Shown: one piece after another, positions 383 through 27,550 of the stretch
Position numbering within the stretch: position 1 is the stretch's first letter
Layout: the number at the start of each line of letters is the position of its first letter
Assembly (NCBI GenBank): GCA_951406725.2
Contig: OX597825.1
Coordinates: 15,748,001 to 15,812,000, forward strand
Source: Octopus vulgaris
Lineage: Eukaryota
Direction: 5' to 3'
DNA: 64,000 nucleotides
Position numbers and translations under genes: made by a program
The notes under the pieces: generated by a model
Database searches by the model: none
What the model saw: the letters and a program-made list of their open reading frames with translations, nothing else
Told to the model about the DNA's origin: nothing

Positions 383-915
383 AGCGGCGGGCTAGCAGAA
401 TCGTTAGCACGCCCGGCGAAATGGTTAGCGATATTTCATCAGCAGTTAAGCTCTGAGTTCAAATTGCGCTGAGGTCGATTTGACTTTCATCCTTTAAAGC
501 AGCGAGCTGTCAGAAACGTTAGCACGCCGGGCGAAATGCGTAGCCGTATTTCGTCTGCCGCTACGTTCTGAGCTCAAATTTCGCCGAGGTCGACTTTGCC
601 TTTCGTCCTTTCGGGGTCGATTAAATAAGTACCAGTTACGCACTGGGGTCGATATAATCGACTTCATCCGTTTGTCTGTCCTTGTTTGTCCTCTCTGTGT
701 TTAGCCCCTTGTGGGTAGTAAAGAAATAGGTATTTCGTCTGCCGCTACGTTCTGAGTTCAAATTCCGCCGAGGTCGACTTTGCCTTTCATTCTTTCGGGG
801 TCGATTAAATAAGTACCAGTTACGCACTGGGGTCGATGTAATCGACTTAATCCGTGTTTCTGTCCTTGTTTGTCTCCTCTGTGTTTAGCCCCTTGTGTGT
901 AGTAAAGAAATAGGT
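383..915 (+). mobile_element. SINE-A cluster: partial copy (383-495) plus dimer (497-915)
   Basis: Internal restart AAATAG|GTATTTCG at 729/730. The flanks GTACACACTTTTCTTAT (365-381) and GTCCATACTTTTCTTAT (913-929) are a near-duplicate pair. Confidence 0.85.
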
Positions 916-1639
916 CCATACTTTTCTTATCTGTCCCAAACAAAAGATATATGACTTAATAAGTTTGCACTTTTACAAAGTTTTTATTAGAATGTGTGTC
1001 TGTGTGTCTGTGTGTCTGTGTGTGTGTGTGTGTGCAAGTGTATCTATATATGTTTGTATGTATTTATGTATGTATGTATTCATGTGCACGTGTGTATGTA
1101 TGTGTGTGCGTAAATTTGTATTCCAGGTTATCACCCTCTCCGTGTTGGAAGCAGAAAAACTACAAGGAAATGGGAATTTACATTTCGCAATATGTGTAGT
1201 TTTCACAGGTTAATCTATTATTGAAGAACATTTATCTTGATAATATGAAACACAATGAAGATGAGAGCAAAACATCCCTTATTATTGCTGGAGGATATAT
1301 TTCTTATTAACTATTTATTACTTTGCAATATTTATGTATCCAAATATCATCACTCGAAATAATTGTTTTTCACCTCTTCATTTCGCTAGATAGAGATTGA
1401 ATTTTAGAAGATCAGGAATTTTATTAGAATACTGAAATTCTGGCAGTAAACGTTTCAATAGTAAATTGCTTTAAAGATGACAAAATTACCAACAATGATA
1501 AATATGATGCAGACCAACAGAGTTAATGCAGATATACCTGATAAACCATTCCTTTCGTTGTTATCATCATTAACACCTGGACATGTCTGTCTCGAATCTG
1601 GGGAATCATAAAACTGATTACCCAGTTTCCATGGTATGA

Positions 1640-2257
1640 GGAAACAAAATCACATTTCTCGCCTGTTCGTCGCAAGTTTACTCGTTACCAGCTGAGTTGA
1701 CTGGAACTACATGAAATGAACTGTTGTGTTCACGAAATAAAGTTATGTTCATAAAATGAAATATTATGTTCACGAAATGAAGTTATGTTCATGAAATGAA
1801 GTGTTATGTTCATGAAATGAAATTATATTCATGAAATGAAGTGCTATGTTCATAAATTGAAGTTATGTTCATGAAATGAAGTATTATGTTCACAAATTGA
1901 AGTTATGTTCATGAAATGAGCTACATGACCTGAAGTGTTATGTTCATGAAATAAAATTATGTTCATGAAATGAAGTTATGTTCATGAAATGAAGTGTTAT
2001 GTTCATGAAATGAAGTTATGTTCATGAAATGAAGTGTTATGTTCATGAAATGAAGTTATGTTCATGAAATGGAGTGTTATATTCACGAAATGGAGTGTTA
2101 TGTTCACGAAATGAAGTTATGTTCATGAAATGAAGTGTTATGTTCACGAAATGAAGTGTTATGTTCATGAACACAACACGTCACCAGTCTGGAAATCGAA
2201 ACCACGATTTGGGAGATCGTGTGTGCAACATACTGACCAGTAAGTCACGCGCCTTCA
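1640..2257 (-). mobile_element. SINE family D copy with an internal minisatellite expansion
   Basis: The reverse complement of 2165-2257 is a tRNA-like head. 1640-1735 matches the SINE-D body (CAGTTCACTCAGCTG) at 8434-8757. Confidence 0.7.
1710..2170. repeat. Minisatellite, 19/21-bp units GTTCATGAAATGAAGT(GT)TAT
   Basis: More than 20 directly visible tandem units alternating between 19 and 21 bp. Confidence 0.95.
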
Positions 2258-2269
2258 CTTATTACATTA

Positions 2270-2490
2270 GCACACACACACACACACACACACACATATA
2301 TATATATATATATATATATATATATATACAACGAGATTCTTTCAGTTTCCGTCTACCAAATCCACTCACAAGGCTTTTGTCGGCCCAAGCCTATAGTAGA
2401 AAACACTTGCCCAAGGTGCCACGCAGTGGGACTGAACCCGGAACCATGTGGTTAGTAAGCAAGCTACTTACCACACAGCCAGTCCTGCGT
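2270..2490 (-). mobile_element. SINE family B, 5' half
   Basis: Reverse complement of GCTGTGTGGTAAGTAGCTTGCTTAC...GGTTCAGTCCCACTGCGTGGCACC. Confidence 0.85.
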
Positions 2491-3451
2491 CTAATTTAAT
2501 TTCTTAGATATAACCCTACATTTTGGTACTGGCAAATAATTATAATTAAATTATGTTAAAATAAGTTCCAACTATCCCGTAATAATCCTTAGAATCTTAA
2601 GAATTTAGTTAATAATATTAACGCATATCGATCTTATTCTCTAGCAATGAATGCTTTAACTGAACTTTTCATTATTACAATGACACATTAACAGAGAGAA
2701 ACTTCAGGGATATACATTATCATCAGAACAGCGCTAATAATCAAAAACGCTAAAACAGGAAACGAAATACAGTGTTATCCGTCATTGTTGAAATATTCAT
2801 TCCAATGTTCTCAGGAGTTTTGTAAACTTTATAAGCACTTCTCCCCGCAGACCATAGAAACCATCATAACTGAAGTCTAGCGTTCAGGTGAGCTACAGCT
2901 GCTGTAAAAAACATTCATTGTTTCAATAACCACTATGGAAAAATGGAAACTGTCCAGTAGTACTCACAATTCTTCTCCCCTGAGTAAATGCAACAACTTC
3001 AATATCTGCCCTCTCACCACATACCCCGTTCTAAAGCGTTGGTTTATGGAGCTTATGTATGTCTTGCAAATAACATTGAAACAAACAACTATATGTGGAT
3101 AACTGAAAATCTATTTAAAAATATGATTGATGCAACATACCTGTCCGCGCATTCAGACGCTCAGAAACTTGCCTCTCCATGTCACTCTTCAAATATATTT
3201 GGAGTTGTAAAGATGATTAATCTGTTATGGAATGTGCCTTCCCCCTAAAATAATGACTCCAGAATTACTTTTTCTCTTCAGGAAGTGTAAAATCTGATTA
3301 TATTATAAAAATTTAAATAAAAAAACGGAATTGGTATATTCTTGTAGATACTTCGAAATTTATTGAAGAATTTCGAGCTACTAAATGGCTTAAATAGTGA
3401 ATTTTCCAAAATTGTAGATTTAGCATACTTTGAATGGTGGTTAGATAATCC

Positions 3452-25105: not shown

Positions 25106-25620
25106 TTGGGTTGTCCGGTAAGTTCGTGCCGATTTTTAAAGGAAAGAAAAAGGTCAATAAATACTTGCCATTACATTTTTAATCAACCAAATATGAACCA
25201 TTTTGTTTCACAGTGCATCTCCATGGCAAAGAATTCATCATGGTATCTTTTTACGTCATCCGAGGAATTGAATTTTTTACCATTAAGACTCTTCTGCAGA
25301 GGCCTGAATACGTGGAAACCCGAAGGAGCAATATCTGGTGAATATGGAGGGTGGGGTAACACATCCCAGCCGAGCTGCAGCAATGTTTGTCTGGTTCCCA
25401 AAGCATTAGTGCCGAAAATGAACTTTCTTATCTTCCATTTTAAAGGGTTACAGAATTAACACAGGTTATAGGAACATAAACCTTCTTCCATGAAAAGATA
25501 GCTTAAACTCTGCTCTAAACGGAGGTTTAGTCAAATTTTATTTTATGGACACAACCATGTTCTAAAATAAGTCGAAAGTTAAGCTACTATAAATCGGCAT
25601 GAACTTTCCGGACAACCCAA
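25106..25620 (-). mobile_element. Internally deleted mariner (mellifera-subfamily-like)
   Basis: 30-bp TIRs TTGGGTTGTCCGG(T/A)AAGTTC(G/A)TGCCGATTT with TA TSD (25104-5, 25621-2). N-terminus MEDKKVHFRH (ATG at 25438) fused to LGWDVLPHPPYSPDIAPS. Nested in an older SINE-A. Confidence 0.93.
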
Positions 25621-25764
25621 TACTATTTTATCGATCCTGAAAGGATGTGAGGCACAGTTGACGCTGAGTAATTTGAACACTTTACCAAGAGGAATACCAT
25701 TAGGCACTTTGTCCGACGCGCTAACGATTCTGCTAGCTCGCAGCTTTTTAATTTCTTTATAATA

Positions 25765-25982
25765 TTCCTTTCTACTATAGGCACAAGACCTGAAATTTGG
25801 GGAAAGGGAGTCTAGTCGATTACATCGACCATAGTACTCAGCTGGTATTTATTTCATCGACCCCGAACGGATGAAAGGCAAAGTCAACCTCGGTTGATTT
25901 TGAACTCAGAGCGTAAAGACGGAGAAAATGCTTAGTTACATTTTGACCGACGCACTTAACGATTCTGCCAGCTCGCTGCCTC
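25765..25982 (-). mobile_element. Older SINE-A (A2 tail)
   Basis: Reverse-complement head, core and A2 tail. Confidence 0.8.
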
Positions 25983-26399
25983 AAAGTATATTTTAATTGT
26001 TGATATTTCGTAAATTTGAAAGAGAAAAAAGCGCAAATAAAAGAAACAATTTAAAATTCAAAAATACAACAAAAGTATTTAAATTTGAATTAAATACAAT
26101 AATGTTTTTTTAGTTCAAACAAACGAAATATTTTGAATAATAGCAAAAAAACTTTAAAATTAGTATTCATTTTGAAAAAGAAGTTAGTGGGGAAGCAATG
26201 ATTATTCTGTGAATGTTCTCGTACATTTGATCTCAGCCGAAAGATCTATCTGTCAGCGAGATTTTTTCTCGATAAAAGTAATTTTATAATGTAAATTGTA
26301 AAAGTCAAAATGGCAACTCCAGACAATATAAAGAATTTCTTACTTTTTCCCTAAACTCAGACTTGTGAAAGAACAGTACTTTGCATTTGATCTGTCTTT

Positions 26400-27550
26400 G
26401 CGTTGTGAGTTCAAATTTCGTCGAGGTCGACTTAGTCTTTTATCCTTTCGTGGTCGATGAAATAATGTACCAGTTAAGCACTTGTAATCGACTTACCCCA
26501 ACCCTTGAAATTGCTGGCCTTGTGCCAGAATTTGAACCCATTGTTATTTACCAACTCAGAAGGCGAGCTGGCGGAATCGTAAGCAGAATCGTAACCACTA
26601 GGCCACGAACCACGCACCTTCTCAGCGGTTAATATTATTGGGAGTCTGTAAGACAACGAGCTGGCAGAATTGTTAGCAAGCCGGAAAAAGCGCTTTGCAA
26701 CATTTCGTCCGTCTTTCAGTTCTGAGTTCAAATTCAGCCGAGGTTGATTTTACGTTTTTATCCTTTTGGGATCGATAAAATAAGTATCAGTTGAGCGCTG
26801 ATGTCGATGTAATTAACTTACCCCCGTCCTAAAAATTGCTGGCTTTGTGCCAAAATTTGAAGTTAATATTATTTGTCACATAAGGGGGCGAGCTGGCGGA
26901 ATTGTTAGCAGAATCGGAACGACTGGGCCACGCGCCTTCTTAGCAGTTAATATTACTGCAGCCTGTAAGACGAGAAACTGGCAGAATCGTTAACACGCCG
27001 GACCATAATGCTTCGCGGCATTTCATCTGTCTTTACGTTCTGAGTTCAAATTCAGCCGATGTCGACTTTGCCTTTCATCCTTTCGGGGTCGATTAAATAA
27101 GTACCAGTTACGCACTGAGGTCGATAGAATCGACCTAATCCGTTTGTCTGTCCTTGTTTGTCCTCTCTGTGTTTAGCCCCTTGTGGGTAGTAAAGAAATA
27201 GGCATTTCGTCTGTCTTTAATTTCTGAGTTCAAAATTCAGCCGATGTCGACTTTGCCTTTCATCCTTTCGGTGTCGATTAAATAAGTACCAGTTACGCAC
27301 TGGAGACGATGTAATCGACTTAATACCTATGTCTGTCCTTGTTTGTCCTCTCTGTGTTTAGCCCCTTGTGGGTAGTAAAGAAATAGGCATTCCGTCTGTC
27401 TTTACTTTCTGAGTTCAAATTCAGCCGATGTCGAATTTGCCTTTTTTTCCTTTCGTGGTCGATAAAATAGGTATCAGTTGGACACTGGGGTCGAGCCCAT
27501 CGACTTATCTCTTCCTCTAAATTTGCTGGTCTTGTACCAAAATTTAGAAC
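26400..27550 (+). mobile_element. Compound SINE-A array
   Basis: A2 copies separated by an approximately 90-bp duplicated spacer (26556-26649 and 26876-26965), then a trimer with junctions at 27201/27202 and 27386/27387 ending in an A2 tail. Confidence 0.85.

Follow-up and report, generated by a model that had tools for sequence, protein, structure and literature searches.

Young tails joined to one internal position of resident copies in arrays of a 233-bp octopus SINE

Why should copies of a short interspersed element run, at one locus after another, from their own 3' end straight into the same internal position of a further copy? We addressed this question in the window, a 64-kb stretch of octopus DNA in which the SINE under study (233 bp, non-coding and interspersed) has 32 matches; its high copy number is reflected in the 623,772 contigs of the public run X3 that were placed on it. 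The element is numbered from 18154 as position 1, with the copy at 18154-18386 as reference. The minus-strand junctions 11340, 17182 and 17366 are given as the last tail base, the coordinates of an earlier note on this DNA being those of the next base, and the base G at the junction can be assigned to either side. Target duplications around the copies vary in length (13, 17, 23 and 211 bp), and at several copies in the window a target duplication was looked for and none was found. The duplications of 13-23 bp at non-homologous sites, together with the one of 211 bp, mark retrotransposition, and the latter demonstrates that long duplications do occur with this SINE.

The head carries A- and B-box-like motifs, recognized by eye against the Pol III consensus, and no T4 terminator lies inside the element. 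ARAGORN returned 0 tRNA genes and an Rfam search of 17850-18550 on both strands returned 0 matches up to an E of 5, on which grounds we rejected an intact tRNA and a ribozyme, and with the ribozyme the self-cleaving monomer that defines retrozymes and related circular-RNA elements. A partner LINE sharing the SINE's tail was not found within the window. The sole LINE detected there (33752-36760) has its 3' end in common with a second SINE family rather than with this one and was rejected as the partner (best local score 14 against this SINE's tail, 36 against the second SINE's). The best named match of that LINE is in Argonauta hians, an octopod. In metagenome and viral contigs, pattern scans picked out 126 loci, 0/126 of them similar to the SINE, and a pattern scan of genome contigs gave 0 loci. 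Octopus tRNA-derived SINEs named OR1, OR2 and OK appear in two earlier studies (PMC4758252, PMC5804259). The present element may resemble them in a tRNA-like head with A- and B-box-like motifs, and presumably also in a common central domain and exchangeable tails.

With 8 of 19 young tails in the window running into element position 50, insertions are concentrated at one position of a repeated target, as in homing; the sequence-specific endonuclease of its own that homing also implies is lacking in this non-coding element. None of the 8 distinct old-type tails in the window restarts at position 50, and a fixed internal restart was seen in 0/11 tails of the second SINE family, which served as control. 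The earlier note had listed eight junctions (729, 5369, 5551, 11339, 17181, 17365, 27201 and 27386) with a common restart about 50 nt into the element; all were found at these places, and all restart exactly at position 50. They make up 8 of the 9 direct same-strand self-junctions (p ~2e-16 for restarts uniform over 233 positions), or 5 of 6 when each locus is counted once (p 2e-9 under the same assumption). The ninth self-junction, 3637, was absent from that list and does not support the idea of a single fixed site, given that it restarts at position 16; it has another tail type. Both of its units carry G22A and T58C, and unit 1 is a patchwork, with 28G and 30A where the resident has neither, which a simple insertion model does not predict. 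Two further insertions, ending at 18136 and 18386, had been assigned to GGTATTT in an antisense copy, and indeed a 17-bp stretch starting GGTATTT follows each of them and occurs three times inside the antisense old copy (17811-18513). We rejected the notion that a DNA hairpin determines the site (best fold in 1/5 site-covering stretches, none beating shuffles), and likewise back-splicing (no AG ahead of the internal site at position 50).

Table 1. Copies, arrays and repeats of the 233-bp SINE in the window
Feature	Position	Strand	Description
Single young copy	138..364 (entry 138..380)	+	17-bp GGT-start stretch follows and recurs after 913; closest relative of unit 497-729
Array 1	497..913	+	full unit 497-729 and unit 50-233 (730-913); junction 729
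Ninth self-junction	3440..3868	-	young unit 3868-3637 with the other tail type; restart at 16 of old-tailed resident 3636-3440
Array 2	5137..5733	+	three units joined at 5369 and 5551; target duplication of 23 bp with AAGAA start
Array 3	11157..11572	-	two units joined at 11340; target duplication of 13 bp with GGTA start and 2 mismatches
3' copy of 211-bp direct repeat	16790..16999	-	adjoins array 4; very long target duplication, AAGAA start
Array 4	16998..17598	-	three units, junctions 17366 and 17182
5' copy of 211-bp direct repeat	17600..17810	-	adjoins array 4
Old antisense resident	17811..18513	-	interrupted by 17904-18136 and 18154-18386; head 18513-18387, rest 17903-17811
Full-length young copy	17904..18136	+	in antisense old copy at GGTATTT; T4 run 8 nt past tail
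Second full-length young copy	18154..18386	+	same site; 5/233 differences from 17904-18136
Older tandem partner of array-5 resident	26561..26880	+	same spacer, head and old tail; without inserted units
Array 5	26886..27570	+	old spacer and head, two new units (junctions 27201, 27386); last unit is the old resident remainder

The most informative locus is array 5, next to which lies an older tandem partner of its resident (106/132 and 139/179 identical) that, judged by alignment, preserves the empty state. On this comparison, insertion into a resident copy at 26886-27570 is demonstrated: the locus has gained two young tails, and with each of them at least 43 bp of the resident is repeated. All three units carry the resident markers at 51, 62, 64, 86 and 92, and the first two units carry young states at 104, 108, 136 and 142, such that the new units follow the resident as far as position 92 or beyond and are young from about 104-108 on. 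Between the two new tails there are differences at 9/108 positions, and neither is related to the resident's tail. The earlier description of 26966-27560, with young tails on the first two units and the old tail on the last, is borne out, and array 5 is in this sense an old head with young tails placed on an old copy. Its assertion that all three bodies carry local variants holds for G92T, which is private to the locus, and fails for 51C, 62T, 64T and 86A, which are old-type and also present in 26561-26880; a second motif said to be common to all bodies differs at one base in the first unit. Integration of a circle by single crossover was rejected, since it fails to account for the presence of the resident's private G92T in three units.

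Given that short units yield weak trees, we relied on a permutation test and nearest neighbours to assess the sharing of variants. Of 10 rare shared variants, 6 are confined to a single locus, where permutation gives a mean of 0.57 (p 5e-5), and four of these six lie outside the one unit, 5370-5551, that is best read as an unequal crossover product: it equals unit 3 of array 2 over 50-125 (0/76 differences) and unit 1 over 126-233 (1/108). On that reading of junction 5551, the eight junctions represent about seven insertion events and not eight independent ones. Units 1 and 3 of array 4 have A142T (private), G158A and G201A in common, the middle unit being near consensus; the two copies of the 211-bp repeat beside it are 193/211 identical. 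Duplication of the resident is directly visible in only three of the seven events that we infer at position 50, two of them in array 5 and one in array 4. It is not directly visible in those of arrays 1 and 3, which are both uninformative on this point, in the first event of array 2 or in the middle unit of array 4. Collectively, the variant sharing of arrays 5 and 4, the clustering of variants by locus and the empty-state partner agree with part of what the earlier note had proposed: new copies enter residents at a fixed site, resident sequence is duplicated, the 5' joint is in register and tails are replaced.

The predicted sharp peak of restarts also appears outside the window, where, in X3 and X15 contigs, the position-50 joint ranks first among the tail joints listed. 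Among the joints listed (the best 15 of 921), eight of the nine that leave the tail end return in the position-50 register, which accounts for at least 305 contigs versus at least 52 for other registers in X3 and at least 101 versus at least 7 in X15; the search reference ended on the GTATTT flank. In the raw-read runs, with 12.9 million reads each and no more than 19 and 240 of them placed on the element, the joint is present in 1 read of X22 and 2 reads of X23, together with a 22-read loose end in X23. A loose end in X23 has a tail followed by GGAATT, a poor fit to the 12-nt guide described below. Since neighbouring units differ (by up to 34%, 62/184) and the joint is found in raw reads and in X3 and X15 contigs, the arrays as a class are not an assembly artefact; the raw-read support applies at class level rather than locus by locus.

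What sets the site? After tails that end in AAATAG the next bases are G[T/C] in 13/13 cases (target GG[T/C]), tails with C at 220 are followed by AGAA in 3/3, and 3/19 young tails (6429, 39671, 41841) show neither motif; classing tails on their final G is in part circular with the target motif. The two tail types differ only in their last 15 nt, yet each has its own target, which suggests that the site is likely chosen through pairing of the RNA 3' end and not by an endonuclease alone. GG[T/C]ATTT sites are used in 5/10 cases inside the family and 0/16 outside it (Fisher p 0.004). Both independent GGT targets outside SINEs match 10-11 positions of the 12-nt flank of 18136 when wobble is allowed, a score of 10 being reached by 4.8% of 1142 GGT sites; this fit concerns two sites only and a guide picked after inspection. 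The contigs available for RNA yielded no RNA ends. The earlier note had named an endonuclease recognizing the 7-mer GG(T/C)ATTT as the cause, which the unused outside 7-mers and the change of motif with tail type do not support. We regard as unlikely a wider version, in which insertion follows the same route and a partner endonuclease preferring GG(T/C)A-type sequence sets the site, with self-targeting arising from the abundance of the motif in the family and easier completion by homology. The non-SINE target duplications likewise begin with GGT on either side of the insert, which means that the target had the motif before insertion, and the 12-nt fit is equally explicable as nuclease preference; the same two observations stand against this version, which two different partner LINEs could rescue.

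We consider it probable that the arrays are residents given young-tailed units at 49/50, likely by target-primed reverse transcription, with likely pairing of the RNA 3' end to the nicked target and likely in-register joining by homology. Young tails do join position 50; at 26886-27570 the resident was in place beforehand, and there resident positions 50 to at least 92 recur in each new unit. A LINE-encoded nick near 49 would free a bottom-strand end that primes on the RNA tail. In what is the weakest step, the commoner tail type would be transcribed with a read-through extension that starts GGUA and pairs with the target; copies like 18154-18386, of an element without a T4 terminator, would end on such an extension; with the other tail type, the end would be AAGAA and the sites AGAA. 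The cDNA would next pair with the matching strand of the resident, at a point that varies (about 93-107 in array 5, past 201 in array 4), and be extended on it, by which part of the resident would be copied a second time and the first unit would combine an old head with a new tail. The site is kept at both head and junction and is for that reason reusable, and existing arrays also grow by unequal crossover, the best reading for 5370-5551. For LINEs, three reports describe priming through RNA-target pairing as well as 5'-end annealing (PMC3649969, PMC7265360, PMC4245944). More tentatively, homing may have been gained with no change in protein, through a copy on its own family's GGTATTT whose read-through RNA captured the site as a 3' guide, with descendants priming there.

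An origin at the DNA level strikes us as improbable. By this account a template switch from the resident to an ectopic young copy returned at GGTATTT microhomology, or unequal recombination, the route offered in PMC10702118 and PMC11481361, amplified a fixed unit as proposed for SINE-derived satellites. Unit 5370-5551 is a clean recombinant, and 18154-18386 may be a duplication through its target repeat (5/233 differences, common G37A). However, the first junction is impossible without a donor tail, the new tails of array 5 differ mutually and from the resident's, the bases just past the junction are resident-type (51C), and donor flank is not carried along. There is little probability that multimers formed before insertion, from RNA cut in a hairpin loop at 46-49 into 50-233 fragments on which reverse transcriptase jumps or rolls round a circle. 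In the minimum-energy and centroid folds alike, the 3' arm of a predicted RNA hairpin begins at position 50, and template jumping is described for R2 (PMC2912911). Arrays 1 and 3 would fit, array 3 within one target duplication, but array 5, whose head and last unit form the older resident, excludes this route there. It also predicts no locus-private sharing, contrary to the 6/10 observed; the whole RNA fold is no better than shuffles (z -0.52), and relative to tail depth the joint is about as frequent in a run guessed to be RNA (~6e-4) as in a DNA run (~5e-4), a weak comparison from contigs only. Amplification of a single multimeric master copy, which the many occurrences of the joint in X3 and X15 contigs might suggest, is scarcely credible and is already contradicted within the window, in line with the earlier note: the first two units of the five arrays differ at 30-54 of 415 positions (7-13%), and the last units carry three different tail types.

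Resident duplication by retrotransposition, the reading that we prefer, has relatives among other elements. Zepp of Chlorella, DIRS-1 and tandem Alu insertions prefer existing copies or reuse a target; being autonomous or reusing flanking target repeats, none of these combines, to our knowledge, an in-register internal restart with tail replacement. Hybrid L1s are known from cultured cells. Chimeric L1 insertions (PMC8087252, PMC4245944) show 5' cDNA annealing, long duplications of up to 323 bp and old/young chimeras, but are rare, dispersed accidents, whereas the octopus events recur at one position. According to PMC7265360 (R1Bm, SART1) and PMC3649969 (L1 snap-velcro), pairing of the RNA 3' end with the target, including read-through target sequence, sets or sharpens the start of reverse transcription in elements that are autonomous, encode their own endonuclease and target rDNA, telomeres or T-tracts. 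The octopus SINE, in contrast, is non-autonomous and targets its own family, and its pairing is postulated from sequence. Our literature search did not find this route in print. If site choice follows the RNA 3' end, a non-autonomous element can gain target specificity from one captured flank, and if the guide was captured as suggested, each insertion would keep the site and renew old copies, a self-feeding, RNA-guided source of fixed-unit arrays.

Fixed-unit SINE arrays as such are already known. The route proposed here offers a testable retrotransposition origin for the initial duplication, with fixed boundaries, from which SINE-derived satellites start at many loci, and likewise for tail exchange in mosaic SINE evolution, both usually left to unspecified recombination. 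Since the arrays mix ages, repeat-age profiles and copy counts for this family would be biased. The squamate sSats (PMC10702118) and the octopus arrays both repeat a fixed part of a SINE in tandem at many loci with a longer terminal unit, gecko sSat3Gja1 covering the central and 3' part of its SINE and the octopus unit, at 184 bp, lying near the sSat range. The squamate units are homogenised, in arrays of at least four within loci, and their origin is there ascribed to unequal recombination, whereas the octopus arrays have two or three units in the window, are mosaics of different age and have junctions that mostly look like new insertions. The tandem tRNA-SINEs of the blood clam (PMC11481361) are likewise mollusc SINE multimers with a fixed head truncation, and their TSD-(SINE-TSD)n form matches octopus 17887-18402. 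Their units are highly similar, the inner ones without a tail and only the last with one; in the octopus arrays, every unit has a full tail and the last unit is often the oldest.

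SINE-A, a 233-bp interspersed repeat that we take to resemble octopus tRNA-SINEs, gives 32 matches in the window and accounts for about 10% of its bases. Numbered after the copy at 18154-18386, its copies agree from the head through the middle as far as about position 167, after which they end in a tail of the young type or of one of two old types. Of 19 young tails, 8 lead into position 50 of the element, 1 into position 16, 2 into an antisense copy at GGTATTT and 8 into other sequence; a fixed internal restart was seen in 0 of 8 distinct old tails and 0 of 11 tails of a second SINE family in the window. 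Eight of the nine self-junctions share one position (p about 2e-16 under uniform restarts), as do five of six when loci are counted (p 2e-9). This confirms the recurrent internal restart seen in the earlier note, though with the junction at position 16 it is not the only restart site.

Array 5, the best locus, clearly records an insertion that hit an older copy and replaced its tail. Its head is identical to that of an older tandem partner at 106/132 positions and its old tail at 139/179. Because the partner matches head, spacer and old tail without the extra units, the head and last unit represent the resident (the older copy receiving the insertion), with two units added between. All three units carry the resident states at 51, 62, 64 and 86 plus a private G92T, and units 1 and 2 carry young states at 104 (which adjoins an alignment gap), 108, 136 and 142, all positions at which the old state is shared by the partner and the last unit. 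Between the two new tails there are 9 differences in 108 positions.

Similar signatures were observed elsewhere. In array 4, A142T, G158A and G201A are common to units 1 and 3, whose ends differ, and the locus at 3440-3868 has the same anatomy at position 16, with G22A and T58C common to both units and two further variants in unit 1 that are absent from the resident. Among variants present in just 2-3 of 21 units, 6/10 are locus-confined (permutation mean 0.57, p 5e-5). The unit at 5370-5551 equals unit 3 of its array over 50-125 (0/76 differences) and unit 1 over 126-233 (1/108), and is best read as an unequal crossover within an existing dimer. We therefore infer about seven events at position 50 rather than the eight insertions first counted, although all eight junctions do lie there. 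Duplication of the resident body, as the earlier note proposed, is apparent in three of these events, two in array 5 and one in array 4, with the swapped tail clearest in array 5; arrays 1 and 3 fit insertion and a pre-formed dimer alike. The pair at 17904-18386 may reflect two insertions, or one and a duplication. Across the five arrays the first two units diverge by 7-13% between loci, arguing against a single multimeric master and contradicting, in the window, the near-identical multimers that the note had set against its own reading.

Features of the window
Feature	Coordinates	Observation
Copy	138-364	Shares A169C with unit 497-729
Old head fragment	365-496	Positions 1-116; flanked by a 17-bp repeat, found again after 913, and array 1; candidate chimeric insert at the 138-364 tail junction
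Array 1	497-913	Head has T44G and G49C
Minisatellite	1730-2170	16-18 bp units
Two-unit locus	3440-3868	
Array 2	5137-5733	
Inverted repeat	6165-6350	About 45 bp, by eye; resembles a small non-autonomous DNA transposon
Array 3	11157-11572	
Direct repeat	16790-16999, 17600-17810	211 bp, 91.5% identical; adjoins both ends of array 4
Insertion-rich stretch	16790-18513	Took at least 4 later insertions
Array 4	16998-17598	
Old tandem duplication	26335-26975	About 315 bp per period, each with a short head fragment, a spacer and an old-tailed element
Partner of array 5	26561-26880	Same spacer, no extra units
Array 5	26886-27570	
LINE	33752-36760	927-aa endonuclease and reverse transcriptase frame; frameshift near 36535

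The earlier note attributed the site to an endonuclease nicking GG(T/C)ATTT; this 7-mer is used at 5/10 sites inside the family versus 0/16 outside (p 0.004), indicating that it is insufficient alone. G(T/C) follows all 13 of the tails that end AAATAG, and AGAA follows all three that have C at 220. Three young tails (6429, 39671 and 41841) fit neither target, and all belong to a subfamily whose heads have T44G and G49C and which may lack the homing end. Target duplications at non-homologous sites span 13-23 bp, with the motif's first bases on both sides; the direct repeat around array 4 is an exceptionally long target duplication, placed where the tail of an old copy ends, so long duplications also arise without homology.

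Our preferred account is that pairing of the RNA end with the target, together with easier completion by homology, sets the site, a step to which we give roughly even odds. The SINE consensus has no T4 run; copies ending at 18136 and 18386 reach one 8 nt beyond the tail, so transcripts of such copies would terminate in a short GGUA extension. The 12-nt flank of 18136 scores 10/12 against the sense site and, with wobble, 10-11/12 against both independent non-SINE GGT targets; the latter are two sites chosen post hoc, and 4.8% of 1142 GGT sites reach 10. This fit suits a nuclease preference equally well. For the uninformative arrays, RNA loop cleavage with template jumping may apply as well, since a predicted RNA hairpin has position 50 as the first base of its 3' arm. 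A DNA hairpin as the cause was not supported. The best named relative of the window's LINE protein is from Argonauta hians (57% identity), which makes an octopod the probable source. The LINE has a 3' end resembling that of the second SINE family and is likely the partner of that family.

The restart pattern is real and recurrent beyond the window. We compared four of 24 listed public runs with the reference 17904-18153, which ended on the GTATTT flank; contigs were taken as presence only. Among 15 joints listed of 921, nine depart from the tail end and eight of these come back in the 184-bp register, so that the sharp peak anticipated by the note is seen to this extent, in contigs of two runs. 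Four of the eight were placed at 17968-17972 and are taken to be this register joint leading into a diverged copy, two listed inserts of 10 and 11 letters exactly closing the gap. In X3, a run under another species label, at least 305 contigs had the register joint versus at least 52 returning to position 1; in X15 these were at least 101 and at least 7, and the top loose end was tail sequence ahead of position 49 (at least 503 contigs). X3 also had an opposite-strand joint from position 1 to position 65 in at least 47 contigs, not among the joints listed for X15 and possibly a further antisense target near a B-box-like motif. Raw reads of X22 and X23, which carry the same species label as the best-matching run, matched the reference in 19 and 240 cases of 12.9 million each, although the repeat is very abundant, and the tail-to-position-50 joint occurred in 1 and 2 reads, respectively. 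In X23, the tail followed by positions 50-61 and then position 168 onward (22 and 25 reads) is a short duplication of the ordinary kind, located at this site too.

Zepp, DIRS-1, tandem Alu insertion and retrozymes offer systems for comparison. In searches covering largely open-access literature, we found no paper describing these arrays or a SINE that homes to one fixed site inside members of its own family. Chimeric L1 insertions with long duplications are reported (PMC8087252), LINEs are described as using RNA-target pairing and 5' annealing (PMC3649969, PMC7265360, PMC4245944, PMC2912911), and SINE arrays of fixed unit are known in squamates (PMC10702118) and the blood clam (PMC11481361), with unequal recombination invoked in both.
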